Made by a program: the position numbers and the translations under genes | Assembly (NCBI RefSeq): GCF_005696695.1 | Contig: NZ_CP040006.1 | Location: forward strand, 690,001 to 722,000 | Origin: Schaalia odontolytica | Lineage (GTDB): Bacteria; Actinomycetota; Actinomycetes; Actinomycetales; Actinomycetaceae | Reading direction: 5' to 3' | Length of the DNA: 32,000 nt | Shown: positions 1 to 22,492 of the stretch, piece by piece | Layout: each line of letters starts with the position of its first letter | How positions within the stretch are numbered: position 1 is the first letter of the stretch | The notes under the pieces: model-generated | Seen by the model: only the letters and a program-made list of their open reading frames with translations | What the model was told of the DNA's origin: nothing | Database searches by the model: none

Positions 1-1
1 C

Positions 2-889: not shown

Positions 890-920
890 CAGTTCTCCGA
901 TCGTTTCAGGGCCGTGGGGC

Positions 921-1778: not shown

Positions 1779-1840
1779 CAGTCCTCCGAATATGACAAAG
1801 CGGGTGAGCACACGTGCGCTCACCCGCCATTGTCTCACGG

Positions 1841-2809
1841 CTACTGGCCGCTGACCTTCTCCGCGCGCCTGGGAAGCAGGTCACCCCACGAGGGGGTGGC
1901 CGCCAGGACCGTGCCCACGAGGATCACGACGCAGCACACCACCTGGGTGGCCGTGGGCACCGTGCCCTGCAGGACGAGAGCGAAGATGATCGCCCAGGCC
2001 GAGTACGAGATGTTCAGGGCCATGCCGCGCGACGCGCCGATCGCCGACAACGCCTTGTAGTAGAAGAGGTACGAGGCCGTTCCCGCCAGGCCCGCCAGCG
2101 CCACGACGCCCGCCGACAGGTGAGCCAGCGAATGCAGTGTGAAGCCGAAGACTCCGGCGATGGGGGCCACGATGAACAGGTACACGACCGCCGAGGTCGT
2201 CTCGCGGATCTGGAGGGCCACCTCGTTATCCACGGCCTCGTCGCGCATGCCCCACGTGAGGATCACGGCCTCGGACCCCCAACCGATCACGCAGGCCAGC
2301 GCGCCGACCACGCCGAGGATCGCATTGCCGCCCTCGATCGGCTCCGACGTCGCCGACCAACCCGTCGCGACGATGGCCGCGAGGGCGACCAGCAGGGCCG
2401 CGATCTGGCGGGGAGCCATGCGCTCCTTCAAGAGGATGAAAGCCAGAAGGGTGCCGAGCGCCGGGTAGAATGTCGAGATGATCGCGGTCAGGCCAGGGCC
2501 GATGTTGTCGATAGCGATCAGGTAACCGCTCATGCCGATCGGGCCGCCCAGCAGAGCCGCCGCAATCACCGACTTGCCCGGGCGCGTCCGCAGCGCCGCC
2601 CAGGTGTCCTTCAGACGACCACGAACCGCCATGTACGCGAGCAGAATCACGGCGCACGCGACGTCGTGCAGGACCGCGCCGGCGAGCGCCGACTGGCCGA
2701 AGTCGGCAAATGGGATCATGGCCAGTGCGATCGCCAGCACGACCGTGTCGAGGCCCCACAGGACGCCCGAGAAGATTCCGTAACGCTTGCCTCCGTGCTG
2801 AGTTTTCAT
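1841..2809 (-). CDS. licB: DMT/EamA-family permease, LicB-like (putative choline transporter)
   Basis: 322 aa and almost entirely hydrophobic, with about 10 TM segments in two halves as in EamA/DMT carriers. ATG 2809 overlaps the stop of the upstream fusion gene (ATGA). It sits between licCA and licD, as in lic loci. Choline as substrate is inferred from context only. Confidence 0.65.
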   Translation of the reverse strand: MKTQHGGKRYGIFSGVLWGLDTVVLAIALAMIPFADFGQSALAGAVLHDVACAVILLAYMAVRGRLKDTWAALRTRPGKSVIAAALLGGPIGMSGYLIAIDNIGPGLTAIISTFYPALGTLLAFILLKERMAPRQIAALLVALAAIVATGWSATSEPIEGGNAILGVVGALACVIGWGSEAVILTWGMRDEAVDNEVALQIRETTSAVVYLFIVAPIAGVFGFTLHSLAHLSAGVVALAGLAGTASYLFYYKALSAIGASRGMALNISYSAWAIIFALVLQGTVPTATQVVCCVVILVGTVLAATPSWGDLLPRRAEKVSGQ

Positions 2810-6283: not shown

Positions 6284-6311
6284 GCGGCGGCCTCCTTCGG
6301 GCGCGGTCGAC

Positions 6312-7475
6312 TCAGAAATGGGCGGCGGCGCGGAACGCCTCGATGTGGACGGAAGCGGCGCGGGCCCACGTGAACTCGTCGGCGCGCGGAATCGCAGCAG
6401 CCCCCAGGGCCTCGCGGCGAGCCGGGTCGTCCAGCAGCTCAGTGAGGGCCGAGGCGATCGAGTCGGGGTCGATGTCGCAGTAGGCAACGGCGTCGCCGCC
6501 GACCTCCGGCAGAGAGGTCAGGCGGGTCGTCAGTGTCGCGGCACCGCAGCTCATCGCCTCCAGGACCGGCAGGCCGAAGCCCTCCGCGATCGAGGGATAG
6601 GCCAAAATAACGCAGCCTGAGAGGAAACCGGGCAGGTCCTCGAGGGGCAGGTAACCGGGGCGCAGGACCGTCAGGTGCTCAGGCACCGAGGCCAGGGCCG
6701 GGTCGATGTCCTCGTCCCACCCCTTGCCGCCGGCCAATACGAGGGCCGGGGGATTCGGGCGATCCGAGACGGCCTTCACCCAGCCACGCACCAGGTTCGG
6801 CACGTTCTTGCGGGGCTCCAGCGTGCCCAGGAAGCCGATGTAGTCGCGGCCCTCCAAGCCCAGCGAGGCCTTGACGCGCTCGCGCTCGGCGTCCGAGACC
6901 GGGTGGAAGATCGAGCGATCCACGCCGTGGTAGGCGACGTAGAACTGCGAGGGGTCTCCGCCCGCGTACTTGATGGTCTCGTCGCGCGTGGCCAGAGAGG
7001 GCACCACGAGGGCGTCCGCGCGGCGAATCGCGCGGCGAATTGCTGCCGTGAAGAAACGCTGCTTGAGGCGCGAATGAGCCTGTGGGTGCGAGAAGAACGT
7101 CGCGTCGTGCAGCGTGATAACGACCGGAACGCCCGGGAACTGCGGAGACGTGTAGTGCGGGGAGTGCAGGACGTCGGGACGGACCTTGCGGATCAGCTTG
7201 GGCAGGCCCGTCTGCTCCCACGCCATGCGCGCGGGGCGGGACTCGAAGCGCTGCGAAATTGGGATGATGCGGGCCGAAGGCAGGCGCGTCGCGAAGTGCT
7301 CGGCGTCGCGCTCCTGGACCGCCATCGTCAGGTCCACGCCCTGCTCGACCAGCTCCGGCACCAGGTCGTCCACGTAGCGGCCGACGCCGCCCAGGTCTGC
7401 GGGGATCGCGGTGCCGTCCAGCAGGACGCGGATCGGATGCGAGTGAGAAACGAAGTGGGCCACGATCATCCCCAT
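6312..7475 (-). CDS. GT4-family glycosyltransferase (RgpA/rhamnosyl- or mannosyltransferase-like)
   Basis: Track ORF 6312..8159 trimmed to MGMIVAHFVSHSHPIRVLLDGTAIPADLGGVGRYV (ATG 7475 or 7469). GT4 C-terminal signature EGFGLPVLEAMSCGAATLTT. The upstream 228 codons are antisense to the neighbouring GT4 gene and are R/G/D/V-rich. Confidence 0.85.
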   Translation of the reverse strand: MGMIVAHFVSHSHPIRVLLDGTAIPADLGGVGRYVDDLVPELVEQGVDLTMAVQERDAEHFATRLPSARIIPISQRFESRPARMAWEQTGLPKLIRKVRPDVLHSPHYTSPQFPGVPVVITLHDATFFSHPQAHSRLKQRFFTAAIRRAIRRADALVVPSLATRDETIKYAGGDPSQFYVAYHGVDRSIFHPVSDAERERVKASLGLEGRDYIGFLGTLEPRKNVPNLVRGWVKAVSDRPNPPALVLAGGKGWDEDIDPALASVPEHLTVLRPGYLPLEDLPGFLSGCVILAYPSIAEGFGLPVLEAMSCGAATLTTRLTSLPEVGGDAVAYCDIDPDSIASALTELLDDPARREALGAAAIPRADEFTWARAASVHIEAFRAAAHF

Positions 7476-7574
7476 TGGGTCGGGAGCAACAACTATTCCC
7501 CTTATCGTATGCCATTTTGCGCTCGCGGATACTTTTGTTACCGCCCCCGCGCGCCCGTGAACTACCCTGGATGT

Positions 7575-8690
7575 ATGAGCGTCAACGTTGGAATGGTCGT
7601 CGAGCAAATGTGGCAGCCGGTGCCCGGAGGATCGGGCCGGTACATCATCGAGGTCGCCGCCCGTCTGGCAGACCAGGGCGTGCGTGCTATCGGTATCGCC
7701 GCACGGCGCGGTGCGGGCGAGCCCACACCGAACGAGGTGGGCCTGACCATCCCCGTGCTTAACTCGGCGCTGCCTCGCCGCGCCCTGTACGCGGCGTGGG
7801 ACCGACTGGGTACCCCCAGCGTGGATCGGATGCTCGGCGTCGGTTCGGGTGGGGGAGCGGATGTCGTGCACGCGACCACCTGGGCGATCCCGCCGACCTC
7901 GCGCCCCCTGGCCGTCACCGTCCACGACGTCGCCTTCCTGCGCGACCCCGACCACTTCACGACCCACGGGTCGGCCTACTTCCACCGCGCCCTCGAGATC
8001 ACGAGGAAGCGTGCAGACGCGATCATCGTGCCCTCGCAGGCCACCGCCGACGACTGTGTCGAAGCGGGCTTGGACGCCTCGCGCATCACCGTCATCCCGC
8101 ACGGCCTGAGCCACACTCCCGTCACCGATGCGCAGGTGGAGGAGTTCCGCTCCCGCCACGGCCTCGAACGCCCCTACGTCCTGTGGGTCGGCACCCGTGA
8201 GCCCCGCAAGAACCTGCCCACCCTGCTCGCGGCCTACGAGCAGCTACAGGGCACCGACCTCGACCTCGTCCTCGTGGGGCCCGCCGGATGGGGAAGCGAC
8301 CCCACCGACGCGCCGCTTCCCGCCGGGCGCGTTCACGTCCTCGGACGTCTCGACGACACTGACCTGGCCTGCGCGTACGCGGGTGCGCGCGTCTTCACCT
8401 TCCCTTCGATCTGGGAGGGCTTCGGCCTGCCCGTCCTCGAGGCCATGGCGCACGGAACGCCCGTCGTGACCAGCGCGGACACGTGCATGGCGGAGATTAC
8501 GGGCGCCGACGCCGGTCTCCTCGTGCCGGCCACCGACGCCTCGGCCCTGGCCGAAGCCCTTGAGGCAGCTGCCGGCAGCGAGCACGACCGGCTCGCCGCC
8601 GCCGGTATCGAGCGCGCCCGCGACTACACGTGGGAGGCCTCCGCCGCCGCTCACGCCGCCATCTACGCGTCCCTGGCAGGTGACCGATGA
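7575..8690 (+). CDS. GT4-family glycosyltransferase
   Basis: Track ORF 6675..8690 trimmed to ATG 7575 (MSVNVGMVVEQMWQPVPGGSGRYIIEVAARL; ATG 7593 is an alternative). Signature EGFGLPVLEAMAHGTPVVTS. Divergent from 6312..7475 across a 99-nt gap. Confidence 0.85.
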   Translation: MSVNVGMVVEQMWQPVPGGSGRYIIEVAARLADQGVRAIGIAARRGAGEPTPNEVGLTIPVLNSALPRRALYAAWDRLGTPSVDRMLGVGSGGGADVVHATTWAIPPTSRPLAVTVHDVAFLRDPDHFTTHGSAYFHRALEITRKRADAIIVPSQATADDCVEAGLDASRITVIPHGLSHTPVTDAQVEEFRSRHGLERPYVLWVGTREPRKNLPTLLAAYEQLQGTDLDLVLVGPAGWGSDPTDAPLPAGRVHVLGRLDDTDLACAYAGARVFTFPSIWEGFGLPVLEAMAHGTPVVTSADTCMAEITGADAGLLVPATDASALAEALEAAAGSEHDRLAAAGIERARDYTWEASAAAHAAIYASLAGDR

Positions 8691-9679
8691 GGGCGCGCAG
8701 CGCGAGGGTCATCCTCGTCAACTGGAAGAACGCGCCGCTCACCCTGCGCGCCGCCCACTCCATCGCCCCGCAGATGGGGGAGGGGGACCACCTCGTCATC
8801 GTCGACAATGGATCCGACGACGACTCGCTCATCGTCCTGCGCGAGGGACTCGACGAGCTGCGCGGCGCCGCCGATCCCGCGCGCGTCTCCCTCGTCAACG
8901 CCGGGACGAACGACGGCTTCGGCGCCGGCGTCATGGCCGGAGCGGCCGGCCTGAGCGAAGATGCCGTCGTCCTACTCAACAACGACGCGACCGTGCGCGA
9001 CGGATTCCTCGACGCGCTCCTGGAGCCCCTGAGCGGGACCGTGGGAGCCACGACGGCCCTCATCTTGCTGACCGGCACCTGGCGTCCCTCCGCCCCCTCC
9101 GACACGGAGTTCCTCGTCGCCCGCGACGGCAGCCGCTGGACGCGCGTCGCCGACGGAGACAGCGGCGGGCAGGTCCTCATCAACTCCACCGGCAACGAGG
9201 TCGATCACGCAGGCAACGGCTACGACCGCTCCTGGCTGGACCCCGCCAACTCCCCGCTGCCCGCCCCCGAGGTCTTCGGCCTGTGCGGCGGCGCCTGCGC
9301 GATCGACGCCGACGCGTGGCGAGCTGTCGGGGGAGTGCGCACCGACCTGTTCATGTACTACGAGGACACCGACCTGTCCTACAAGCTGCGTGAGGCCGGG
9401 TACGAGGTGCGCTTCGTCGCCGGTGCCGTCGTCGACCATGAGCACGCGGCCTCCTCGGGCACGTCCTCGCCCATGTTCCTGCGGGTCAACGCGCGCAACC
9501 GCATCATCGTCGCCGCCCAGCACGCCCCCTGGGGCGTCGTCGCACGTGCCATCGCCCGCTCGATTGCTCGGGCGGTGCGCTCGGGTGGACGGGGACCGGT
9601 CGCCCGCGGAGTCCTCCAGGGGCTCCTCGCCCTGCCCCGCGCGCTGCGCCACCGCACCGCGCTGCCTCCCCGACGATAG
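8687..9679 (+). CDS. GT2-family glycosyltransferase (WbbL/rhamnosyltransferase-like)
   Basis: 330 aa. ATG overlaps the upstream stop (ATGA). Motifs: VILVNWKN, IVDNGSDDDS, NAGTNDGFGAGV, LLNNDATV, YYEDTDLSYKLREAGY. Confidence 0.8.
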   Translation: MRARSARVILVNWKNAPLTLRAAHSIAPQMGEGDHLVIVDNGSDDDSLIVLREGLDELRGAADPARVSLVNAGTNDGFGAGVMAGAAGLSEDAVVLLNNDATVRDGFLDALLEPLSGTVGATTALILLTGTWRPSAPSDTEFLVARDGSRWTRVADGDSGGQVLINSTGNEVDHAGNGYDRSWLDPANSPLPAPEVFGLCGGACAIDADAWRAVGGVRTDLFMYYEDTDLSYKLREAGYEVRFVAGAVVDHEHAASSGTSSPMFLRVNARNRIIVAAQHAPWGVVARAIARSIARAVRSGGRGPVARGVLQGLLALPRALRHRTALPPRR

Positions 9680-9685
9680 GGGAGT

Positions 9686-9705
9686 CGGCCTCGTGGACGA
9701 GGCCG
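9686..9705 (+). terminator. GC-rich hairpin after the GT2 gene (8-bp stem, 4-nt loop, no U-tract)
   Basis: CGGCCTCG-TGGA-CGAGGCCG, 7 nt after the stop at 9679. No T-run follows, so it may attenuate or stabilise mRNA rather than terminate fully. Confidence 0.3.
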
Positions 9706-9764
9706 GGGCCGATGGGTGCGTCACGGCACACAACGCGGGGCGGAGCTGCGTAGCGCCTACGCCT

Positions 9765-9773
9765 TGATAGACT
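9765..9773 (+). promoter_or_regulatory. Extended -10 promoter element TGATAGACT; predicts a leaderless mRNA starting at ATG 9781
   Basis: TGnTAnnnT match. The last base of the hexamer is 7 nt before the A of ATG 9781. No Shine-Dalgarno sequence is present in 9774..9780. Confidence 0.4.
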
Positions 9774-9780
9774 GACTGAC

Positions 9781-10632
9781 ATGGTGAAGACTGTCCTCGT
9801 TACCGGAGCCGGTGGCTACATTGGCCGCCACATTGTTCACGCCCTGCTGGAGCGCGGCCTCGACGTCAGCGTCGTCGACTTCCGCCTCGACGGTGTCGAC
9901 GAGCGCGCGCGCCGCATCGACACCCAGATTTTCAGCGGAGACGCTGACATCTACGACCAGCTCGGACGCCCGGACGTGGTCCTGCACCTCGCGTGGCGCG
10001 ACGGCTTTGTGCACAACTCGCCGGCCCACATCGAGGACCTGCCCGCGCACTACCGCTTCATCGAGAACCTCCTCGAGGGCGGCTGCACCCACCTGGCCGT
10101 CATGGGTTCCATGCACGAGGTCGGCTACTGGGAGGGCGCCATCGACGAAAACTCCCCGTGCAACCCCGCCTCGCTGTACGGCATCTCCAAGAACGCGCTG
10201 CGACAGATCACGTCGCTGCTGACCGCCAAGCACGGCGCGACCATGCAGTGGCTGCGCGGCTACTACATCGTCGGCGACGACGCGCACGGCTCCTCGATCT
10301 TCTCCAAGCTCCTGGCCGCCGCCCAGGAAGGCAAGAAGACCTTCCCCTTCACCACGGGCAAGAACCTCTACGACTTCATCTCCATCCAGGGACTGGCCTA
10401 CCAGATCGCGGCCGCCGTCTCCCAGGACGAGGTCACCGGCATCATCAACATCTGCAGCGGCGAGCCGATGAGCCTCGCCGACCGCGTCGAGGCCTACATC
10501 CGCGAGAACAACCTGGACATCGCCCTCGAGTACGGGGCCTTCCCGGATCGTCCCTACGATTCGCCCGGAGTGTGGGGCGACGCCACGAAGATCCGCCAGA
10601 TCCTGGCCACCGTCGACGGCACGGGGGAGTAA
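9781..10632 (+). CDS. NAD(P)-dependent epimerase/dehydratase-family SDR (probable nucleotide-6-deoxyhexose 4-reductase/epimerase)
   Basis: 283 aa. Rossmann motif VLVTGAGGYIGRHIV and catalytic YxxxK as LYGISKNAL. Its size and position in a rhamnose-type cluster resemble RmlD/Tll-type reductases. Exact specificity cannot be assigned. Confidence 0.75.
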   Translation: MVKTVLVTGAGGYIGRHIVHALLERGLDVSVVDFRLDGVDERARRIDTQIFSGDADIYDQLGRPDVVLHLAWRDGFVHNSPAHIEDLPAHYRFIENLLEGGCTHLAVMGSMHEVGYWEGAIDENSPCNPASLYGISKNALRQITSLLTAKHGATMQWLRGYYIVGDDAHGSSIFSKLLAAAQEGKKTFPFTTGKNLYDFISIQGLAYQIAAAVSQDEVTGIINICSGEPMSLADRVEAYIRENNLDIALEYGAFPDRPYDSPGVWGDATKIRQILATVDGTGE

Positions 10633-10636
10633 GGCC

Positions 10637-12499
10637 GTGAAGCGCGCCGGTATTTTCCTGTTCTTTGATCCCCAGGGCCTCGTCGATGACTACATCGTGG
10701 AGTGCCTGACCTCGCTGCGCGAGTACCTTGATGAGATCCTCGTCGTTTCCAACTCTCCTCTGGACGACACTGCTCGTGAGCGCCTCCTCAAGGGCGCCAC
10801 CGAGGTCTTCGAGCGCGAAAACACCGGCTTCGACGTGGGCGGCTACCGCGACGGCATCGCCCGCTTCGGCTGGGACCGCCTCGGCCAGATCGACGAGCTG
10901 ATCCTCTTCAACTACACCTTCTTCGCACCCGTCAACCCGTGGAAGAACCTCTTCGACCGCGTGGACGCCGCCGGAGCTGTGGACTTCTGGGGCATCACCG
11001 AACACGACGAGGTGCGCCCCCACCCCTTCCTGGCAGCCACCCGCATGCCGCGCCACATCCAGTCCCACTGGATCGCCGTGCGCAACCCGCTGCTCAGCTC
11101 CCCGGACTTCCGCAAGTACTGGGACGAGATGCCCCCGATCCGCTCCTACAACGACTCGATCCAGTGGCACGAGTCGCGCTTCACGGAGTACTTCGGCAAC
11201 CTCGGCTACACGCACGTCGTGGCCTACCCGCGCGAGGACTACCCGTCGCGCAACCCCGTCTTCGACAACGCCTCGATGCTGCTCGCGGACGGCTGCCCGA
11301 TCCTCAAGCGCCGCAACCTCTTCCACGACCCGCTCTACCTGGACCGCCACGCGATCATCGGCGCGGACATGCTGGAGCTGGCGGAAAAGGCCGGCTACGA
11401 CACCGACCTGATCCTCACGAACCTCGCGCGCACCTCGCGTCCGCGTGACCTCGTGACCAACGCGGGCCTGACGACGGTCATCTCCCCGCGCGCCGACCAG
11501 GCCACCCTGGACGCCGCCGCCTCCCTGAAGGTCCTCGCGGTCGCACACATCTTCTACGCCGACATGGCCGACGAGATCCTCGACCGCCTGAGCGTCCTGC
11601 CCGACGGCTACCACCTGGTGGCCACGACCTCGAACGAGGAGAACAAGGCCCTTATCGAGGCACGCGCCCAGGAACGGGGCGTGGACGCCGACGTGCGCGT
11701 CGTGTCCTCCAACCGCGGCCGCGACATCGGCGCGTTCCTGGTGGATTGTGGCGACGTGCTCACCTCCGGCGAGTACGACATCGTCGTGAAGATCCACTCC
11801 AAGAAGTCCGTCCAGGACGACTACAACGCCGCCCAGCTTTTCAAGGAGCACCTCTACGACAACCTGCTGGCTTCCTCCGATCACGTGGCCGGCATCCTCG
11901 CCGAGTTCGCCGCCCACCCGGGCCTGGGCATGGCGATCGCACCCATGCCGCACATGGGCTACCCGACGATGGGCCACGCGTGGTTCGCGAACCGCGCCCC
12001 CGCCCGCGAGTTCGCCAAGAAGGTCGGCATCACCGTCCCCTTCGACGACCACCAGCCGCTGGCCCCCTACGGCTCCATGTTCATCGCGCGCCCGGAGGCC
12101 CTGTCCCTGCTGACCGGCGCGGGCCTCGTCCCCGAGGACTTCCCGGAAGAAGGCGGCTACAAGGACGGCTCCCTGGCGCACGTCATCGAGCGCCTCCTGT
12201 CCTACGCGGTCCTGTCGCGCGGCTACTACGTGCGCCCCGTCATGACCCCGAAGTGGGCGGGCGTGTACTACGGCTACCTCGAGTACAAGCTGGCGGCGAC
12301 CTCGTCGATGATGCCCGCCTTCGCGATCGACCAGGTGCCCTTCCTGAAGGCGCGCATGGGCGCGGTCCCGAACCTGCTGGGCGCCGTCAAGACCAACATC
12401 ATGGTGCGCACGCCCGGACTGGGGAACGCGCTCAAGCCGGCGTACCGCGCGGCCCGCGGAGTCGCCCACAAGATCCGATCCATGAAGGGTGAGCGATGA
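10637..12499 (+). CDS. Rhamnan synthesis protein F (RgpF) family glycosyltransferase
   Basis: 620 aa with a GTG start 4 nt after the SDR stop. The N-terminal block AGIFLFFDPQGLVDDYIVECL...ERENTGFDVGGYRDGI...DFWGIT and the duplicated domain organisation match my recollection of the RgpF family. Confidence 0.75.
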   Translation: MKRAGIFLFFDPQGLVDDYIVECLTSLREYLDEILVVSNSPLDDTARERLLKGATEVFERENTGFDVGGYRDGIARFGWDRLGQIDELILFNYTFFAPVNPWKNLFDRVDAAGAVDFWGITEHDEVRPHPFLAATRMPRHIQSHWIAVRNPLLSSPDFRKYWDEMPPIRSYNDSIQWHESRFTEYFGNLGYTHVVAYPREDYPSRNPVFDNASMLLADGCPILKRRNLFHDPLYLDRHAIIGADMLELAEKAGYDTDLILTNLARTSRPRDLVTNAGLTTVISPRADQATLDAAASLKVLAVAHIFYADMADEILDRLSVLPDGYHLVATTSNEENKALIEARAQERGVDADVRVVSSNRGRDIGAFLVDCGDVLTSGEYDIVVKIHSKKSVQDDYNAAQLFKEHLYDNLLASSDHVAGILAEFAAHPGLGMAIAPMPHMGYPTMGHAWFANRAPAREFAKKVGITVPFDDHQPLAPYGSMFIARPEALSLLTGAGLVPEDFPEEGGYKDGSLAHVIERLLSYAVLSRGYYVRPVMTPKWAGVYYGYLEYKLAATSSMMPAFAIDQVPFLKARMGAVPNLLGAVKTNIMVRTPGLGNALKPAYRAARGVAHKIRSMKGER

Positions 12500-13767
12500 G
12501 CCTGGCCTCCACGATCCGGGCTGCGGCCCCTCACACGCCCCAGTCCGTCGCGCAGGCATTCAACTCCAGGTCCAACTCGATCGGGTTTTTGCGCTGGCTG
12601 ATGGCCTTCATGGTCATCTTCTCGCATGCCGGACCGATCGCCGGATTCTACGGCGGCGAGGACCTGGGCGTGCAGATCTCCAAGGAGCAGTCCATCGGTG
12701 GCGTCGCCGTCGCAGGATTCTTCTTTTTCTCGGGCTTCCTGATCACGCGCTCGCGCATGGGACGCGCGACGATCTGGCGCTACATGTGGCGCCGCGTCCT
12801 GCGAATTTTCCCGGCCTTCTGGGCGGCCCTGCTCTTCACGGTCGGCATCCTCGCGCCGATCGCGTACTGGCACACGTTCCACAACATCTCCGGATACCTG
12901 CACCCGGCCACCGAGTCCCCACTCACGTACTTTGTGAACAACATGTGGCTGAACCTGGGCCAGCGCAATATCGCCGGCATGGGCGAGAACCTGCCGTACT
13001 ACATCTTGCACGGCGCCCGTGACTGGAACGGCTCGGCCTGGACACTCATCTACGAGTTCAAGGCCTACATCCTGGTGGCGATCCTCGGCCTGTTCGGAGC
13101 GCTCGCGAACCGCAAGGTCGGCGGCGCCTTCGCCCTCGTGCTGATCGCCCTCAACGCTCTGCAGTGGATGGGCGCGGGTCAGGTCTCCAACGTCAACTAC
13201 CTGCTGCGCGACCCCTACATGCTGATGTTCATGGGCCCCTTCGCCTTCGGCATGCTGTTCACGCTCTACGGCGACAAGATCCCCATGGACTCGCGCCTGG
13301 CGTGGGGCGGCCTCATCTTCGGAGTGCTCTCCTACGCGTCGGGCGGCTGGAACATCGTCGGCCAGTACGGTTTCCTGTACTTCCTCATGTACCTGGCGAT
13401 TCGCCTGCCCCTGCAGAACTGGGAGAAGCACGGCGACCTGTCCTACGGCATCTACATCTACGCATGGCCGATCATGGCGTTCGCCGCCTACTTCCACCTG
13501 CAGGATCGTGGCTGGATCGCCTACCACCTGACGGTTGTCGTGACCGTGCACATCCTGGCCTACCTGTCGTGGCACCTCATCGAGAAGCCTGCGATGAGCC
13601 TGAAGAACTATCTGCCGCGCTGGATGGATAAGCTCATTGAGCACTTCCGTCCCACGTACGAGGCCGTGGCCCGCCGCATCGTCACGCCGGCCCTGTCCTC
13701 GACCAGGATTGCGACGGTCATGGAGGCCGAAGAGGCGGCCGCACGCAGCGAGGAGGAGACCAAGTGA
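12496..13767 (+). CDS. Acyltransferase-3 (AT3) family integral membrane O-acyltransferase
   Basis: 423 aa. ATGA overlap with the RgpF-family gene. N-terminal AT3 signature NSIGFLRWLMAFMVIFSHAG, about 10 TM segments, and a charged cytoplasmic tail. Confidence 0.8.
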   Translation: MSLASTIRAAAPHTPQSVAQAFNSRSNSIGFLRWLMAFMVIFSHAGPIAGFYGGEDLGVQISKEQSIGGVAVAGFFFFSGFLITRSRMGRATIWRYMWRRVLRIFPAFWAALLFTVGILAPIAYWHTFHNISGYLHPATESPLTYFVNNMWLNLGQRNIAGMGENLPYYILHGARDWNGSAWTLIYEFKAYILVAILGLFGALANRKVGGAFALVLIALNALQWMGAGQVSNVNYLLRDPYMLMFMGPFAFGMLFTLYGDKIPMDSRLAWGGLIFGVLSYASGGWNIVGQYGFLYFLMYLAIRLPLQNWEKHGDLSYGIYIYAWPIMAFAAYFHLQDRGWIAYHLTVVVTVHILAYLSWHLIEKPAMSLKNYLPRWMDKLIEHFRPTYEAVARRIVTPALSSTRIATVMEAEEAAARSEEETK

Positions 13768-15068
13768 GCGAGAAGAAGGCCGCCGGCCAGTTCAAGGAAT
13801 CCGAGTCCGGTCTGCGCGACGTCTCCTTTGACGAGGGGGTTCCCGCCGGCTCATGGAAGCGCCGCCTCCACTACGTGCCCCTCGCCGTTCTCCTTGCGGG
13901 CGCGTGTGCGGCCACCGGCGTGGGCACCTGGTACAAGGTCACCCACCCCGCTCCTCAGCCAGCTGCGGCACCCGCTGCCCAGGCCTCGTCCTTCGCGCGC
14001 ACCACGCCCCAGTCCCTGCCCGAGGTCTGCGCCCCCACCCCGCGCGCCGACGTGGGCCCGTGGACGCCCGGCGTGGCCGGCACCGCGGGCTACCTGCCCA
14101 CGGACGCCGCCCAGGCCTCGTTCGAGCAGTCCATGACCGGCGTGACCACGTATGTTCAGGGCCGCGACGGCTACCTGTTCCTCTCCGACGTCTTCAACGC
14201 GAACTTCTCCCAGGCGCTGGGCCGCGTGCGCCCCACCCCCGAGCAGGTGAGCGCGTGGGACCGCTACATGAGCGGCATCGAGACCGCCGCGAGCGAGCAG
14301 GGCGCGACCGCGCTGTTTGTGCCCGCCCCGGCCACGTGGGACGTCTACTCCGACAAGCTGCCCCAGTGGGCCGACCCGCTGATGGGCACGACCTCCCTGG
14401 ATCTCATGCGCTCGGCGCTGCCCGCCCACGCGTGGGTGGACGTGCGCGAGGGCCTGCGCGAGGCCCGCGAGGGGAGCGAGGCACCGCTGTACTCGGCGGT
14501 CAACCCCCACTGGTCGCCCTACGCCGCGCACGTCGCGTGGAACCAGACGCTGTCCTGCCTGGCCGCGGTCAACCCGCAGCTTGAGGGCCTGCCCTCCCTG
14601 ACGCCGTCCGGCGTGAGCGGCGTGGACGCCCCCAACGAGTACGAGGCCCTGGGAGCCCCCGCCCAGGCGGGGCCGTGGGCGGTCCCCACATACGAGCAGG
14701 ACCCGGGCAGCGTTCACCTCCTGCAGCTGGAGAGCCGCGACGATCTGGCCGACACCGCCGCGCGCCTGGCCGAGGTGACGGGCGCCCCCGAGGTGTCCCT
14801 GGCCAGCCCCGTCGACTTCCAGAACAAGCCGGCGCTCACCTACAACCCGAACGGACGCGGCACCGCGCTCATCGTGCGTGACTCCCAGGGCAACAACCTG
14901 GGACCCGACGTGGCCGCGACCTTCGAGTACACGATCCAGGTCGGCCACGCCCTCGACTCCGAGCAGCCGACGGACGTCGCCGCCCTCATCGAGGCCTACA
15001 AGCCCAGCGTCGTGATCGTGGAGTTCACGCAGCGCTACCTCGCGCTCACGCCGGCCGCAGGCAAGTAG
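13764..15068 (+). CDS. Membrane-anchored extracytoplasmic AlgJ/AlgX-like (SGNH-like) O-acetyltransferase partner
   Basis: 434 aa. GTG start overlaps the AT3 stop (GTGA), with AGGAGGAG upstream. One N-terminal TM segment (YVPLAVLLAGACAATGVGTWY). Motifs resembling AlgJ/AlgX: GRDGYLFLSD, VPAPATWDVYSDKLP, NPHWSPYAA (canonical D.HW) and LIVRDSQGNNL (canonical GDSF). Confidence 0.55.
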   Translation: MSEKKAAGQFKESESGLRDVSFDEGVPAGSWKRRLHYVPLAVLLAGACAATGVGTWYKVTHPAPQPAAAPAAQASSFARTTPQSLPEVCAPTPRADVGPWTPGVAGTAGYLPTDAAQASFEQSMTGVTTYVQGRDGYLFLSDVFNANFSQALGRVRPTPEQVSAWDRYMSGIETAASEQGATALFVPAPATWDVYSDKLPQWADPLMGTTSLDLMRSALPAHAWVDVREGLREAREGSEAPLYSAVNPHWSPYAAHVAWNQTLSCLAAVNPQLEGLPSLTPSGVSGVDAPNEYEALGAPAQAGPWAVPTYEQDPGSVHLLQLESRDDLADTAARLAEVTGAPEVSLASPVDFQNKPALTYNPNGRGTALIVRDSQGNNLGPDVAATFEYTIQVGHALDSEQPTDVAALIEAYKPSVVIVEFTQRYLALTPAAGK

Positions 15069-15096
15069 AATAGATTTCCTGACCACGACAGAAGCG

Positions 15097-15951
15097 ATGG
15101 GAGTAGCCGTGTCTGAGACGAAACGGGTCATTGACCTGACGATGCGCATGGCGCAGCGCTCGATCTCCTCGGAGTTCAAGGGCACCGCGCTCGGCCGCCT
15201 GTGGTCCTTCATCAACCCGATCGCCACGATCGCCGTGTACGCGCTGATCTTCGGCGTCGTCTTCCGAGGCGAGGCCGACAAGGGCGTGAACTCGGGTCTG
15301 TCCTCCTTCGCGCTGTGGATCGGCGTAGGCGTCATCGCCTGGAACTTCATGTCGAGCGGTATCCAGCGCGGCATGGACTCCCTCGTGGGTAACTCCGGCC
15401 TGCTCACCAAGGTCTACTTCCCGCGTCAGGTCCTCATCTACTCCTCGGTGCTGGCCCTGGCCTACGACTTCGCCTTCGAGCTGGGCGTCATCATCCTCAT
15501 CATGTGCATCGCCGGCGGCCCCGGCGTGCTGCTCATGATCCCCGCGGTCATCGTGATCACGCTGCTCGCGATGCTCTTCGTGATCGGCATGGGCCTCATC
15601 TTGTCGGTTGCCTCGGTCTACTTCCGCGACATCTCGCACCTGTGGCAGATCTTCAACCAGATCTGGATGTACGCCTCCGGCGTCGTCTTCTCCCTGTCGA
15701 TGCTCAACAAGGTCCAGACCGACCTGGCGGCCAAGGGCTGGACCTGGGGAGGCGAGCCGCTTCCAATCGTCACGATCTTCCGTCTCAACCCCGCCGAGCT
15801 CTTCCTTGAGGCCTACCGCTCGACGCTGTACGGCTTCGCGATGCCGTCCTGGCAGGTGTGGCTCGGCTGCGCCGCCTGGGCATTCGGCATCTTCGGCCTC
15901 GGCTCGCTGATCTTCCGCCGCTTCTCGGCACGAATCGTGGAGGAACTCTGA
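15097..15951 (+). CDS. ABC-2 type polysaccharide export permease (Wzm/RgpC/TagG-like)
   Basis: 284 aa with 6 predicted TM segments. N-terminal LTMRMAQRSISSEFKGTALGRLWSFINP is typical of ABC-2 glycan exporters. Its stop overlaps the ATPase start (TGATG). Confidence 0.85.
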   Translation: MGVAVSETKRVIDLTMRMAQRSISSEFKGTALGRLWSFINPIATIAVYALIFGVVFRGEADKGVNSGLSSFALWIGVGVIAWNFMSSGIQRGMDSLVGNSGLLTKVYFPRQVLIYSSVLALAYDFAFELGVIILIMCIAGGPGVLLMIPAVIVITLLAMLFVIGMGLILSVASVYFRDISHLWQIFNQIWMYASGVVFSLSMLNKVQTDLAAKGWTWGGEPLPIVTIFRLNPAELFLEAYRSTLYGFAMPSWQVWLGCAAWAFGIFGLGSLIFRRFSARIVEEL

Positions 15952-17243
15952 TGACGAACGCGATTTCGGTGGAGGGCGTCTCCAAGCGCTTCCGCATCTA
16001 CAAGAACCGCAACCAGTCCCTTAAGGGCGCGTTCCTGCAGCGGTCGCGCGCGCAGTTCGAGGAGTTCTGGGCTCTCGACGACGTCTCCTTTGAGATCCCG
16101 CAGGGCAAGACCTTTGGCCTGCTCGGACACAACGGTTCGGGCAAGTCGACGCTGCTCAAGTGCATCGCGAAGATCCTCACCCCGGACAGAGGAACGATCT
16201 CCTCGACGGGACGCATGGCCGCCATGCTCGAGGTCGGCTCCGGCTTCCACCCCGAGCTGTCGGGCCGCGAGAACATCTACCTCAACGGCGCGATCCTGGG
16301 CATGAGCAAGAAGGAGATCGACTCCAAGCTGGATGCGATCATCGACTTCTCCGGCGTCGAGCGCTTCATCGATCAGCCGGTCAAGAACTACTCCTCGGGC
16401 ATGTACGTGCGCCTGGGCTTCTCCGTGTCGATCCACGTCGAGCCGGACATCCTCCTCGTCGACGAGGTCCTGGCCGTGGGCGACATGGAATTCCAGAACA
16501 AGTGCATGGACAAGTTCGCCCAGCTCAAGGACCAGGGGCGCACGGTCGTCGTCGTGTCCCACGGCCTCGAGCAGATGCGCACCTTCTGTGACCAGGCCGC
16601 GTGGCTGGATCACGGCACGCTCGTCGACGTGGGCGCGGCCGCCGAGGTCATCGATACCTACTCCGACGTGGCTCACCACGCCGTCGAGGTCGAGGGTGGC
16701 GGTACGCGCTTCGGTAGCGGCGAGGCCATGATCGAGCGCATCGAACTGCTGAACGCCTCCGGCGAGCCCACGTCGCTCGTGTACCCGGGCGATCCCGTGC
16801 GCCTGCGCCTGCACTACCGTGCGAACGAGCGCATCGAATCCCCGGTCTTCGGCGCCTCCATCGACACTCGTGAGGGCGTCTTCGTGTGGGGCCTGCACGG
16901 CATGGACGCCTGCTACGTGCCGACGTCGATCGAGCCGGGCACCGGTCACCTCGACATCGAGATCCCGCGTCTGACCTTCAACCCGGGTGCCTACACGATC
17001 TCCGCGGCCATCCAGAACCACGACATGACCAGCGTCATCGACGCCCTGCAGAAGGCGCGCCGCTTCGACGTCCTGCCAGGCCCAGGCATGGAGTCCGGCG
17101 GCCTGGTGAACCTGGGAGCGTCGTTCACGGACCTGACGCCCGCACGCCCCATGCGTGACGTGCCCAAGCGCGGCGCCGCCGACTACGAGCACCTCGCGCG
17201 CATGCAGGCCCAGCAGGCCGACGCGCTCGAAAACGAGGACTGA
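15951..17243 (+). CDS. ABC transporter ATPase (Wzt/RgpD/TagH-like) with C-terminal Wzt_C-like glycan-binding domain
   Basis: Track ORF 15858..17243 trimmed to ATG 15951 (MTNAISVEGVSKRF). Walker A GHNGSGKST, signature YSSGM, Walker B ILLVDE. Residues 252-395 (RFGSGEAMIERIELLNASGEP...VRLRLHY...PVFGASI...GAYTISAAI) resemble the beta-sandwich Wzt C-terminal domain. Confidence 0.85.
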   Translation: MTNAISVEGVSKRFRIYKNRNQSLKGAFLQRSRAQFEEFWALDDVSFEIPQGKTFGLLGHNGSGKSTLLKCIAKILTPDRGTISSTGRMAAMLEVGSGFHPELSGRENIYLNGAILGMSKKEIDSKLDAIIDFSGVERFIDQPVKNYSSGMYVRLGFSVSIHVEPDILLVDEVLAVGDMEFQNKCMDKFAQLKDQGRTVVVVSHGLEQMRTFCDQAAWLDHGTLVDVGAAAEVIDTYSDVAHHAVEVEGGGTRFGSGEAMIERIELLNASGEPTSLVYPGDPVRLRLHYRANERIESPVFGASIDTREGVFVWGLHGMDACYVPTSIEPGTGHLDIEIPRLTFNPGAYTISAAIQNHDMTSVIDALQKARRFDVLPGPGMESGGLVNLGASFTDLTPARPMRDVPKRGAADYEHLARMQAQQADALENED

Positions 17244-17263
17244 CGGACGCGTCAGCGTTCGAG

Positions 17264-17305
17264 GCCGGGGCCCAGCGGTGTGATGCCGCCGGGCCCCGGC
17301 TTTTT
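17264..17305 (+). terminator. Rho-independent terminator of the polysaccharide operon
   Basis: GCCGGGGCCC (17264-17273) pairs with GGGCCCCGGC (17291-17300). An inner GCGG/CCGC extension is present, and TTTTT follows at 17301-17305. It starts 21 nt after the stop codon. Confidence 0.8.
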
Positions 17306-17393
17306 GTCGAGTTGGTGGCTCAAATGCGCCCGCGTTATGTGAGGAGCGTCCTACACTTATAGGAGAACTGTTTTCCAGCGACAAGGCACTGTC

Positions 17394-19118
17394 ATGGCAT
17401 CGACGCCCACACTCGCCCGCCGCGCACTCGCGCGCGCCCTCACCGCAGCCCTGACCCTCGCGCTCATCGCCCTGCCCGCGCAGGCCCGCGCCGACGCCGG
17501 GGACGAGGCCACACCGCAGTCCGCAGCCGACACTTCCACCGCGGCCCAGTCCGCCTCGCTTGCCGCGCCGTCGGCTTCGCCCAGCCCCGAGGCCACGGAC
17601 GCGCCCGAGCCCGCCACCCCCAGCGCGAGCGACGAGGATCGGGCGGCCCCGGCCTCGTCGGAGAGTGACGAACCCCCGACGATGGACGCGCCAAACGAGA
17701 CCGGGAGGGGCGCGTGGGTGCGCGACTCGATCGGCTGGTGGTGGCGGCGCGCCGACGGCACCTACCCCGCCTCCCAGTGGGTGCGGATTGGGGACGCGCG
17801 CTACTTCTTCTACGACAGTGGCTACATGGCCACCGGCTGGTTTCGTGACCGTGCCGACTGGTTCTTCCTGGCTCCCTCCGGGGCGCTCGTCGGAGGCTGG
17901 CTCTACGACGGCGGCTCCTGGTACTACCTGGATCCCGCCAGTGGCGTCATGCGTACGGGGCTCACGCCCGTGGATGGCACGTGGTACTACCTGGGTTCCT
18001 CGGGTGCGATGCGTACCGGCTGGGAGCACCTCTTCGACGGGTGGCACTACTTCGCCTCCAACGGTGCGCAGATCGGCGGCTGGCTGCGCGACGGGGGCCA
18101 GTGGTACTACCTGGATCCCGACACTGGCGTCATGCGTACGGGTATGACCGGCGTAGATGGCACGTGGTACTACCTGGACTCCTCGGGTGTGATGCGCACC
18201 GGCTGGGTCCGCCTCGCTGACGGCTGGCACTTCTTCGCATCCAGCGGCGCCCAGATGGGAGGCTGGCTGCGCGACGGGGGAGAGTGGTATTACCTCGACC
18301 CCGACACCGGCATCATGCGCACCGCGCCTCTGGAGCTGAACGGCCGCCGCTACGAGTTCGACTCCTCGGGCGCATGGCGCGGGTACGAGGCGCCGGCCGG
18401 CTACCTGCAGCCCACCGACCACATCACGGGCCTCGGGGACGCGACTAACACGCTCACCTGGGGGATGAACGGCACCAAGGTACGTATCGTCCAGGTACGC
18501 CTCGGGCTGTGGCATGCAAACAAACTTGCCTCCGTCGACGCGCCCTTCGTGGCCGCCGTCAAAAACTTCCAGCAGCGCGCAGGCCTGCCCGTCACCGGCG
18601 TCGTTGACAAGGCCACCTGGGATGCGATGGACACCGGCTACCCGTGGACCGTCGACCAGTACCAGGCCACGCCGCTGCCCCTGACGGCCACGCGCTCCGA
18701 GCGGGTCGAGGCCATGATCGGGTACGCGTGGAACCAGACTGGCTCGTCCTACACGTGGGGAGGGGCAGGCCCCTACGACCAGGGATTTGACTGCTCGGGC
18801 CTGGTCCTTCAATCCCTTTACTCCGCGGGCTTGGATCCCCAGCCCATCGACGTCATCAAGCACGCGTGGCCCTCCTACCGCACGTCGCAGGAGCTCTACG
18901 CATACCCGCGCTTCCAGCACGTGCCCCTCTCTCAGCGCCAGCGTGGCGACCTCATCTTCTACACGACGAGCGGCACCGTCACGCACGTCGCGATCTACCT
19001 GGGGGACGACATGGTCGTCCACACGGACTGGATGGGGCGCCCCGCCCGCATGCAGCACATCACCGCCGGATACGGGTGGGACCGCATGACGCCAGACGTC
19101 GTGCGCCCGCTGCCCTAG
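17394..19118 (+). CDS. Secreted cell-wall hydrolase: signal peptide + A/P/S/D/E-rich linker + about 10 CW_binding_1 (choline/cell-wall-binding) repeats + PG_binding_1-like domain + NlpC/P60 endopeptidase
   Basis: 574 aa. Signal peptide MASTPTLARRALARALTAALTLALIALPAQARA. Twenty-residue repeats of the form G.WYYLD..G.M.TGW occupy residues 108-328. VRIVQVRLGL...FQQRAGLPVTGVVDKATWDAM resembles PG_binding_1. The NlpC/P60 catalytic region includes GFDCSGLV, RGDLIFY and THVAIYLG..MVVH. Confidence 0.85.
   Translation: MASTPTLARRALARALTAALTLALIALPAQARADAGDEATPQSAADTSTAAQSASLAAPSASPSPEATDAPEPATPSASDEDRAAPASSESDEPPTMDAPNETGRGAWVRDSIGWWWRRADGTYPASQWVRIGDARYFFYDSGYMATGWFRDRADWFFLAPSGALVGGWLYDGGSWYYLDPASGVMRTGLTPVDGTWYYLGSSGAMRTGWEHLFDGWHYFASNGAQIGGWLRDGGQWYYLDPDTGVMRTGMTGVDGTWYYLDSSGVMRTGWVRLADGWHFFASSGAQMGGWLRDGGEWYYLDPDTGIMRTAPLELNGRRYEFDSSGAWRGYEAPAGYLQPTDHITGLGDATNTLTWGMNGTKVRIVQVRLGLWHANKLASVDAPFVAAVKNFQQRAGLPVTGVVDKATWDAMDTGYPWTVDQYQATPLPLTATRSERVEAMIGYAWNQTGSSYTWGGAGPYDQGFDCSGLVLQSLYSAGLDPQPIDVIKHAWPSYRTSQELYAYPRFQHVPLSQRQRGDLIFYTTSGTVTHVAIYLGDDMVVHTDWMGRPARMQHITAGYGWDRMTPDVVRPLP
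17898..18323 (+). repeat. In-frame tandem 183-bp (61-aa) super-repeat, about 2.3 copies, inside the hydrolase gene
   Basis: The W codon of GGWL(Y/R)DGG recurs at 17898, 18081 and 18264, exactly 183 nt apart. Each unit encodes three 20-21-aa cell-wall-binding repeats (WLRDGG.WYYLDPDTG.MRTG / ..VDGTWYYL.SSG.MRTGW / ....DGWH.FAS.GAQ.GG). Confidence 0.85.
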
Positions 19119-19133
19119 GGCAGAAACGGAAGC

Positions 19134-19165
19134 GGGCCGGCCGTGGAGTGTTCCACGGCCGGCCC
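19134..19165. terminator. Bidirectional terminator hairpin between convergent genes
   Basis: Perfect 14-bp stem GGGCCGGCCGTGGA / TCCACGGCCGGCCC with a 4-nt loop (GTGT). It lies between the stop at 19118 (+) and the stop at 19188 (-). There is no strong U-tract on either side. Confidence 0.7.
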
Positions 19166-19187
19166 GTCTGTCTGAGATAGGGGGTCC

Positions 19188-21865: not shown

Positions 21866-22492
21866 CTAGAAAACGACGGGCCAGTGAGGCATGCAGGTCG
21901 TCAGCGTGGCGTGAGCGGTCGTGGCCTCGGCGAGGGCCTGTGTGTAGGCGGGATTGACCTCGGGTTGTTCGCCGCGCTTGAGTGCCGCCTCCGCCGCGTC
22001 GGGATCGGCGAACTCGGGGATTGCGCCGGAGTCGAGGGACGCGTTGCGCTCGACGTAGACCGCGAGGGCCGCCAGGGCCTGCTTGGAGGTCTCGTCCGTG
22101 GCCGCCTGGGTGAGGCGGTCGGAGTAGTCAGTCTTGAAGGCGGCCGCGAAGGCCTCCCACGCGCGGTGGCGTTCGTCCGCGCTGGTTTCCCCCGATCGCT
22201 TGGCCGCCAGAGACCTGTAGGCCTGGCCGGTCTCGGAGCCGTTGAGCGCCTCGGTGAAAATCTCATCCATGGCGGCGCATCCGGGGGAGGCCGCGTGCAG
22301 GGTCGGCATCGCCGAGCTCGACGGCTGGCCGGGGTCTCCCGCGGAAACGGAGGCTGCGGGCGTCGACTGAGCGCTCTGGGTGTCCTCGAGCATGGAGCAC
22401 GAGGCCGTGGAAAGGGCGCAGAGGGCGAGCAGCGCGAGCGAGGGGACGAGACGAGTCACGAGAGGTCCGTTTCTGTTGGGGAATACGTCCAA
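21866..22492 (-). CDS. Putative lipoprotein of unknown function
   Basis: 208 aa. Signal peptide with a lipobox-like LALLALCALSTASC. The mature part is Ala/Glu-rich and helical-looking. I recognise no family motif. Confidence 0.55.
   Translation of the reverse strand: MDVFPNRNGPLVTRLVPSLALLALCALSTASCSMLEDTQSAQSTPAASVSAGDPGQPSSSAMPTLHAASPGCAAMDEIFTEALNGSETGQAYRSLAAKRSGETSADERHRAWEAFAAAFKTDYSDRLTQAATDETSKQALAALAVYVERNASLDSGAIPEFADPDAAEAALKRGEQPEVNPAYTQALAEATTAHATLTTCMPHWPVVF

Follow-up and report, generated by a model that had tools for sequence, protein, structure and literature searches.

The window analyzed here, 32,000 nt of the Schaalia odontolytica chromosome (contig NZ_CP040006.1, positions 690,001 to 722,000), carries a gene for a 574-residue secreted protein that combines choline-binding-type repeats, a PG_binding_1 module, and an NlpC/P60 cysteine peptidase domain, and that lies directly behind the ABC exporter of a wall-glycan locus. 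We judge it likely that this protein, hereafter the hydrolase, is a DL-endopeptidase tethered by approximately six pockets to phosphocholine (P-Cho) on the cell's own wall glycan, that it also docks on the wall through PG_binding_1, and that it has a role in remodeling or cell separation. The evidence comes from the domain identities, an intact catalytic triad, homologs of a P-Cho-adding (lic) pathway in the same locus, conserved gene order, and retention of the choline-cage residues in orthologs. In public databases the family is annotated as "NlpC/P60 family protein / C40 family peptidase." An earlier interpretation made from the letters alone (the sequence-only reading) had proposed a secreted protein with ~10 repeats, PG_binding_1, and NlpC/P60 at this position, and a Pfam hidden Markov model (HMM) search finds all of these domains above their cut-offs (Table 1).

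The Repeats Form a Predicted Solenoid That Most Closely Resembles the Pce Module

Two Pfam families match the repeats above their curated cut-offs, Choline_bind_3 (5.1e-39, six stretches) and Choline_bind_1 (2.7e-33, seven stretches). By eye and with a repeat HMM, 10-11 units of 20-21 residues each were counted between residues ~107 and 331, and the AlphaFold2 (AF2) model of this region contains 22 evenly spaced strands, corresponding to 11 hairpins, with predicted local distance difference test (pLDDT) values of 78-92. The units are ordered as a 61-residue (183-bp) super-repeat of three types, WLRDGGxWYYLDPxxGVMRTG, xTxVDGTWYYLxSSGAMRTG, and WxxLxDGWH(Y/F)FASxGAQxGG, and Tandem Repeats Finder (TRF) detects a 183-bp period in the DNA of the array, with 2.3 copies at 82% identity. 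All orthologs retain the first and the last unit, each of which is of a distinctive type. Homologs are 513, 574, or 635 residues long and one ortholog (L013) carries 13 units, which indicates that copy number shifts by whole 61-residue super-repeats; across orthologs it ranges from 4 to 14 units. This polymorphism (window positions 17890-18370; homologs P0001 and P0096, among others) points to frequent recombination inside the array.

Choline cages were scored from the sequence as the Trp residues at positions 1 and 8 of one unit, a Tyr/Phe of the following unit, and a Met/Leu. Of the 10 units scored, seven have Trp at position 1 and eight have it at position 8; an aromatic pair occupies positions 9-10 in all units except one, and Met/Leu is present in seven. 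The canonical Trp-Trp-Tyr/Phe cage is kept at six of the nine repeat interfaces and, in line with the sequence-only reading, orthologs that are only 50-65% identical to the hydrolase hold the same cage residues, often in near-consensus units such as WLQLGSTWYYLHGDGHMATG. A Foldseek search with the confident repeat model returned the choline-binding module of Pce (2bib) first, which is thus the closest solved structure (E value of 6e-24, 35% identity over 231 columns, rmsd of 4.0 Å), followed by CbpJ and CbpF; toxins with combined repetitive oligopeptides (CROPs; 17-25% identity) and glucansucrases (~19-20%) ranked lower. In the printed alignments, position 8 is Trp in Pce and in the hydrolase and Lys, His, or Phe in TcdA. 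These features suggest that the repeats most likely bind P-Cho on the cell's own wall polymer. Membership in the PspA and PspC families was rejected; the NCBIfam models score far under their curated cut-offs (177 vs 850 and 190 vs 700, respectively), and their match is limited to the repeat region.

An Intact NlpC/P60 Active Site Follows a Peptidoglycan-Binding Module

The PG_binding_1 region (residues 351-415) aligns with positions 4-69 of the SleB N-terminal domain. In the domain C terminal to it, the catalytic motifs quoted in the sequence-only reading (DCSG...H..IYLG...H) are present as GFDCSGLV, THVAIYLG, and VVHT, which supply Cys467, His531, and His543, respectively. In the alignment with Mycobacterium tuberculosis RipC (8idc), GFDCSGLV is identical, THVAIYLGDDMVVHT stands opposite SHAGIYIGDGLMVHS, and the triad residues match; the domain was also aligned with RipA and with Corynebacterium glutamicum 8auc. 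All three catalytic residues are invariant in 31 homologs (alignment A1). The catalytic domain is most closely related to those of the actinobacterial enzymes RipC, RipA, and DIP1281. Membership in any of these families was rejected, as the NCBIfam equivalog scores are far under the cut-offs (RipA, 43.9 vs 625; RipC, 50.6 vs 425; DIP1281, 51.6 vs 517), which indicates that the catalytic domain alone is common to the hydrolase and these proteins. RipA, RipC, and the C. glutamicum/DIP1281 enzymes have the same Cys-His-His/Glu geometry, are secreted, and function in septation or remodeling. However, Rip-type enzymes are positioned via coiled-coil partners (FtsEX, RpfB), whereas the hydrolase contains no coiled-coil and has the repeats and PG_binding_1 instead.

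The sequence-only reading had regarded an endopeptidase with two wall-targeting modules as distinctive. Both modules are present, but the combination has a precedent in pneumococcal CbpD, which consists of CHAP, two SH3b domains, and a choline-binding domain; it is therefore not unprecedented, and the hydrolase would join a known kind of choline-binding protein (CBP). Like the hydrolase, CbpD unites a cysteine peptidase of the papain-like type, from the clan to which NlpC/P60 also belongs, with a PG-binding module and choline-binding repeats, that is, with two wall-targeting devices. In contrast to CbpD, the hydrolase has the reverse domain order, NlpC/P60 in place of CHAP, PG_binding_1 in place of SH3b, and no sign of competence control or fratricide. 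CbpD is described as a CBP fratricin in a passage of one report (PMC9910801).

The active-site residues also bear on the idea that the protein is a wall scaffold or adhesin in which the repeats serve biofilm formation or host adhesion and the NlpC/P60 domain is catalytically irrelevant, as in RipD-like inactive domains. PspA and CbpA, whose repeat regions are the best NCBIfam matches, are adhesins, and a passage in the discussion of a 2018 paper links the CBP genes of S. odontolytica XH001 to biofilm (PMC6166536). Yet the Cys, His, and His are invariant, the surrounding motifs match those of active enzymes, and the model of the inactive RipD scores 30 against a cut-off of 215, which makes such a function extremely improbable.

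Homologs of the Lic Pathway Lie in the Same Wall-Glycan Locus

By homology, the complete Lic-1 pathway set (LicA, LicB, LicC, and LicD) is present in the same glycan locus, at the end opposite to the hydrolase and ~12.8 kb away from it; the LicD Pfam match is 1e-37, and there is a second licD copy. The lic writer postulated by the sequence-only reading is thus present by homology (LicC, LicA, LicB, and two LicD proteins). Its statement that the hydrolase lies next to the glycan/lic genes was correct for the glycan exporter, which is adjacent, but not for the lic genes. No lic genes were found within ±10 kb of distant hydrolase orthologs, which is uninformative because the distance in the window itself is 12.8 kb.

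The gene at 2806-4635(-), publicly annotated as "MarR family transcriptional regulator," encodes a MarR/winged-helix domain joined to LicC and LicA. This helix-turn-helix (HTH)-LicC-LicA fusion may couple choline activation to transcriptional control. Proteins at least 70% identical to it are present in Actinomyces mediterranea, Schaalia cardiffensis, A. israelii, A. vulturis, A. faecalis, Actinomyces sp. B33, and A. capricornis. A. mediterranea (L028) has both the fusion and a hydrolase ortholog, and in an A. israelii-type contig the fusion is followed by licB and licD, again amid rhamnose-glycan genes.

The genes between the lic module and the hydrolase form a rhamnan-type wall-polysaccharide locus (Table 1), the product of which is the presumed carrier of P-Cho. 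Beyond the hydrolase, the order continues with a GT2 glycosyltransferase (GT) gene, DUF2142, a 208-residue lipoprotein, RmlB, and more GT2 genes.

The Hydrolase Keeps Its Place in the Locus, and Pce-Type Esterases Neighbor Its Orthologs

The hydrolase is 90-94% identical to proteins of S. odontolytica UMB0018, Schaalia sp. ORNL0103, and Pauljensenia isolates and 50-67% identical to proteins of S. georgiae, A. urogenitalis, A. mediterranea, and A. johnsonii. In S. georgiae and in all loci of the S. odontolytica group, the hydrolase gene comes after Wzm/Wzt, and in more distant Actinomyces the ortholog is located between RmlB and a homolog of the 208-residue lipoprotein. This fixed place, observed in ~30 genomes, indicates that the hydrolase is a stable component of the family's wall-glycan locus. 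Two loci deposited under other names, "Xylanimonas cellulosilytica strain 352_XCEL" (L007, NZ_JVKM01000063.1) and "Sanguibacter keddieii strain 250_SKED" (L018, NZ_JVOJ01000037.1), show 94-95% identity and full S. odontolytica synteny and are almost certainly mislabeled Schaalia genomes.

The repeat HMM, run over the window and the fetched loci, finds one repeat protein in the window and, in L020, L021, L022, L027, and L029, an additional protein of ~1,000 residues upstream of the hydrolase ortholog. This protein combines Amidase_2, choline-binding repeats, and Glucosaminidase (GH73) (L027:5916-8810(-) and L020:5584-8604(-)), and its gene sits upstream of both RmlB and the ortholog; as judged from its domains, it would effectively join LytA-like and LytB-like activities in one chain. 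A second repeat protein, with a metallo-beta-lactamase (MBL) fold, is encoded downstream of the ortholog in L020, L027, and L029. The L020 copy (12112-13923(-)), two genes from the ortholog, is a full-length Pce/CbpE homolog (2bib, 1.5e-92), the catalytic domain of which is 46% identical over residues 97-345 and keeps the metal-binding THxHSDHIG motif. The L027 copy (12578-13747(-)) is also Pce-like (2bib, 8.7e-59), as is the A. urogenitalis copy, which in the ORF extraction appears to be interrupted at its N terminus. With the Pce catalytic domain alone, homologs are found in A. timonensis, A. marmotae, A. gaoshouyii, Actinomyces sp. B33, A. bovis, S. georgiae, and Eggerthella lenta; at least six named Actinomyces/Schaalia species have Pce-like proteins. 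A Pce-type esterase, whose known task is to take P-Cho off wall polymers, would be hard to explain beside the ortholog unless P-Cho polymers were present there and were recognized by the attached repeats. The high identity suggests that Pce may have been exchanged with oral streptococci. Collectively, the lic set, the cages, the Pce-like fold ranking, and the Pce neighbors support, at the level of sequence, the writer-plus-reader arrangement in an actinobacterium that the sequence-only reading had put forward.

One contig (L037), whose GC content of 0.668 equals that of the window and which adjoins nar and molybdopterin genes, encodes a 688-residue repeat-only protein (5603-7669(+)) and a 498-residue Pce-like esterase with a vestigial repeat tail (10001-11497(+); 3e-35 vs CbpE). 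This esterase may be the P-Cho "eraser" of the S. odontolytica group. The best matches among phage records are to Eggerthella phage PMBT5 and then to streptococcal or clostridial phages. The PMBT5 endolysin (H1/H2) carries the closest phage-borne repeats (42% identity), and E. lenta, a member of the Coriobacteriia, has Pce-like MBL-repeat proteins (P0250 and P0282); the choline/repeat system may extend to this second actinobacterial class.

Glycan and Decoration Genes Are Listed as Putatively Essential in Strain XH001

In saturated transposon sequencing (Tn-seq) of S. odontolytica XH001, the putatively essential genes include APY09_05475 and 05480 (both LicD) and 05490 ("MarR family," 1830 bp), as well as GT genes, an epimerase, RgpF, both ABC components, RmlB, and a GT2 (PMC12369343, Table S2). 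The lengths of these genes match those of the window one for one, 1830 bp being the exact length of 2806-4635. The four tags 05545-05560 lie between the exporter and RmlB, where the window has the hydrolase, GT2, DUF2142, and the lipoprotein; matched in this way by position, none of the four is in the essential list, and the licB, DUF2142, and acyltransferase genes are likewise missing from it. Because the list contains the polymer and decoration genes and omits the hydrolase slot, we infer that the cell depends on the glycan polymer and on its decoration with choline as core functions and that the hydrolase is dispensable or redundant, with the qualification that the tag assignment is positional and that polar effects can underlie Tn-seq calls.

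In a 2023 survey, A. viscosus and A. gerencseriae appear among the TEPC-15-positive organisms that have Lic-1 enzymes but no defined P-Cho glycoconjugate (PMC10434233); the TEPC-15 reactivity on record is that of other Actinomyces species, beside the homology-complete lic set found here. The 2018 paper, in a passage citing He et al. 2015, states that "choline binding proteins" are among those whose genes rise when XH001 carries TM7x (PMC6166536). Within the literature collection that was searched, there was no relevant report of a phosphorylcholine esterase or CBP system in Actinomyces or Actinobacteria.

Choline Is Favored over Other Ligands and Targets

The repeats could instead form a lectin for the rhamnose-type backbone or for the glucans of plaque streptococci, the lic genes being merely co-resident. 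The same beta-solenoid fold binds glucans or other glycans elsewhere, as in the CW_binding_1/CROP repeats of glucansucrases and clostridial toxins, to which the hydrolase repeats show strong sequence and fold matches. TIGR04035 (glucan_65_rpt) gives a sub-threshold match (62.1 bits vs a cut-off of 147.7), and the 61-residue three-unit super-repeat resembles long-period glucan-binding domains. In every third unit the first Trp is replaced by Leu, Met, or Pro, which leaves one-third of the interfaces non-canonical. Together with these points, several others weigh against our assignment. A search of 50,697 phage records turned up no endolysin of a Schaalia or Actinomyces phage that shares the repeats. 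According to the repeat HMM, the window itself has no Pce-like gene or second repeat protein, and what ties Pce to S. odontolytica is orthology in other genera and a GC-matched contig. The LicB-type permease is not listed as essential, though licC/A/D are, a less neat fit than in pneumococcus. Finally, the C-terminal half of the AF2 model is of low confidence: the PG_binding_1 and NlpC/P60 halves have pLDDT values below 50, with a shallow alignment (at least 79% identity), and only the repeat solenoid is confident. Nevertheless, we regard a lectin as unlikely. The position-8 Trp, which is absent from toxin repeats, is kept; the Pce module is nearest, with 35% identity compared with ≤25% (toxins) and ~20% (glucansucrases); in the orthologous neighborhood, a genuine Pce-type esterase carries repeats of this same kind; and the full lic pathway is conserved across the family.

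A P-Cho ligand would also suit a bacteriolysin directed against mitis-group streptococci or siblings in the oral biofilm, with the lipoprotein as an immunity or inhibitor factor. Such a protein would account for the CbpD-like architecture, in which choline-binding repeats and a PG-binding module accompany a cysteine peptidase, for dispensability in vitro, for the gene's own promoter-like region and terminators, and for the conservation of the lipoprotein alongside it in distant species, and the producer shares its oral niche with P-Cho-positive streptococci. Its fixed site in the producer's wall-polymer locus across the family, however, argues for a housekeeping function, as does a catalytic domain nearest to the division and remodeling hydrolases RipC, RipA, and DIP1281, and competence or bacteriocin-type regulation is not evident. 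We consider a bacteriolysin distinctly improbable and retain the tethered wall endopeptidase as the favored reading.

The Hydrolase Gene Is Probably Its Own Transcription Unit

In the ORF listing of the window, the hydrolase gene starts with ATG and has a GC content at third codon positions (GC3) of 0.88, typical for genuine genes of this 67% GC window, and its four Pfam domains recur together in more than 120 homolog clusters. Two overlapping long ORFs, 15813-19058(-) and 17560-18147(+), were rejected as genes (GC3 of 0.64, without other support); this GC3 marks the long antisense ORF over the hydrolase as an artefact of composition. The N terminus, MASTPTLARRALARALTAALTLALIALPAQARA followed by DAG, contains an RR pair and lacks a lipobox. 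It is plausibly a signal peptide, and the RR pair would make twin-arginine translocation (Tat) possible.

The sequence-only reading had placed the gene directly downstream of the exporter, as its own unit between two terminators. Wzt indeed ends at 17243, and a separate unit is reasonable in view of the predicted hairpins at 17264-17300 and 19133-19166. Compensatory changes in the first stem in the relatives L012, L013, and L016 (alignment A2) argue for a functional hairpin, and the second is probably a bidirectional terminator. The block at 17350-17372 is near-invariant within the species group (alignment A2) and may be a candidate promoter (-10-like TACACT) or a leader element; a sigma-70 consensus scan found no sites, so that the promoter idea comes from conservation. 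An Rfam scan of the whole window gave no matches, including no c-di-AMP (ydaO) or other riboswitch in the 150-nt leader.

Table 1. Features of the hydrolase gene and of the surrounding wall-glycan locus (window coordinates)
Feature	Position	Strand	Basis and remarks
Hydrolase gene (repeats, PG_binding_1, NlpC/P60, secreted)	17394..19118	+	ORF, GC3, Pfam; XH001 slot APY09_05545 by position
Signal peptide (plausible), aa 1-33 (…LPAQARA, then DAG)	17394..17492	+	Sequence inspection; conserved in orthologs
Ala/Ser/Pro/Asp/Glu-rich linker, aa 34-106	17493..17711	+	Sequence; pLDDT 23-45, predicted disordered
Choline-binding-type beta-hairpin repeats, aa 107-331, 11 units	17712..18386	+	Pfam, unit census, TRF, AF2, Foldseek
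PG_binding_1 peptidoglycan-binding module, aa ~351-415	18444..18638	+	Pfam 4e-10, 40.2 bits vs 23
NlpC/P60 (C40) cysteine peptidase domain, aa ~438-571	18705..19106	+	Pfam 8.2e-16, 58.3 bits vs cut-off 23
Wzm	15097-15951	.	Pfam; exporter gene, upstream side of hydrolase
Wzt with Wzt_C domain	15951-17243	+	Pfam, NCBIfam TagH/Wzt; directly precedes hydrolase unit
Intrinsic terminator after wzt (predicted)	17264..17305	+	15-bp stem (17264-17300, one mismatch), 7-nt loop, TTTTT
Conserved block CCTACACTTATAGGAGAACTGTT, 23 nt	17350..17372	+	~22-44 nt 5' of ATG; alignment A2
GC-rich 15-bp hairpin	19133..19166	strandless	Between convergent hydrolase and GT2 genes
lic writer module	1..4635	-	Pfam, frame recovery, PDB matches
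licD (first), running off left edge	to 889	-	Frame recovery
licD (second)	921-1838	-	Pfam
licB-type permease	1841-2809	-	Sole PDB relative pneumococcal LicB 7b0k, 2.2e-34, full-length
HTH-LicC-LicA fusion, 609 aa	2806-4635	-	MarR-type HTH; LicC 1jyk 5.7e-37; LicA 4r77 7.3e-27
Rhamnan-type wall-polysaccharide locus	4730..17243	.	DUF2142, divergent GT4 pair, GT2, epimerase, RgpF, Acyl_transf_3 + AlgX-like, Wzm, Wzt; Pfam, NCBIfam, synteny
Predicted lipoprotein, 208 aa (…LLALCALSTASC…)	21866..22492	-	Translation; conserved neighborhood

The 208-residue lipoprotein has no family match in Pfam or NCBIfam. Its homolog directly adjoins the hydrolase ortholog in distant Actinomyces (L020-23, L027-30), and in the window it is two genes away; from this neighborhood it could be a partner or inhibitor of the hydrolase.

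Within the glycan locus, the long ORFs 6312-8159(-) and 6675-8690(+) overlap and both have GT4 matches. The XH001 annotation resolves them into divergent shorter genes of 1164 and 1098 bp, the maximal ORFs crossing in high-GC DNA. The Acyl_transf_3 and AlgX-like SGNH pair (12496-15068(+)) probably serves glycan O-acetylation, as its domains suggest; it is absent from the otherwise syntenic L013 and L024 and appears to be a variable decoration cassette within the locus. Part of the exporter ATPase is a carbohydrate-binding Wzt_C domain (1.2e-26). Wzt_C reads a chain-terminating modification in O-antigen systems, and in pneumococcus gatekeeping by TacF has been described; by analogy, one may speculate that Wzt_C gates export on a terminal mark such as P-Cho.

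Discussion

Like the pneumococcal hydrolases LytA, LytB, and LytC and that of phage Cpl-1, the hydrolase is modular and is predicted to hold noncovalently to a P-Cho polymer via hairpins of ~20 residues with Trp/Trp/Tyr cages, and, as in LytB and LytC, its repeats are N terminal. As in pneumococcus, the producer would make the P-Cho mark itself, with licA/B/C/D. In contrast to the pneumococcal CBP hydrolases, its catalytic domain is NlpC/P60 rather than Amidase_2, GH73, or GH25, it has an extra PG_binding_1 module, and it belongs to the Actinomycetota. The presumed P-Cho carrier is also of a different type, a rhamnan-type polysaccharide exported by Wzm/Wzt, compared with the flippase-exported teichoic acid of pneumococcus. 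Pce shares the repeat module but is a metallo-beta-lactamase-fold esterase that removes P-Cho, whereas the hydrolase is predicted to cut peptidoglycan.

In the mechanism that we favor, LicB would bring choline into the cell, the fused LicC-LicA protein would produce cytidine diphosphate (CDP)-choline, and the two LicD transferases would add P-Cho to a lipid-linked rhamnose-type glycan in the cytoplasm, with Wzm/Wzt then exporting the decorated glycan. The N-terminal solenoid of 11 repeats would provide the first anchor of the secreted hydrolase, gripping P-Cho in approximately six inter-hairpin pockets (Trp-Trp-Tyr/Phe plus Met/Leu), and docking of PG_binding_1 on peptidoglycan would provide a second, noncovalent one. 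Thus anchored, the Cys467/His531/His543 site would cut stem peptides, presumably at the gamma-D-Glu-diamino-acid bond, in the service of wall remodeling or daughter-cell separation, by an enzyme that would be dispensable in vitro.

On a wider scale, we see about an even chance that the Actinomycetaceae run a pneumococcus-like choline wall economy on an ABC-exported rhamnose-type polysaccharide, with an essential writer, several readers, and a Pce eraser. The writer would consist of LicB, the HTH-LicC-LicA fusion, and two LicD proteins, and the readers would include the NlpC/P60 enzyme, the amidase-glucosaminidase, and the repeat-only proteins. The parts of the hydrolase are all familiar, and as a modular recombination of well-known parts it would be a moderate surprise to the specialist; the surrounding actinobacterial choline-wall system is undescribed, masked by public annotations such as "C40 family peptidase" and "MarR family transcriptional regulator." Choline-dependent wall biology is regarded as characteristic of pneumococcus and the species closest to it, in which drugs and vaccines are aimed at it. 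If the system is shown to operate as proposed, choline-wall logic would reach a further phylum and a further class of polymer, it would be explained why oral Actinomyces have long been known to react with anti-phosphorylcholine antibodies, and the surface of XH001, which serves as model host for the ultrasmall epibiont TM7x, would become more tractable. Phosphocholine would then be a core, possibly essential, wall feature of abundant oral commensals, with a bearing on anti-phosphorylcholine immunity, on the binding of C-reactive protein, and on how phages and the Saccharibacteria epibiont TM7x recognize these cells.

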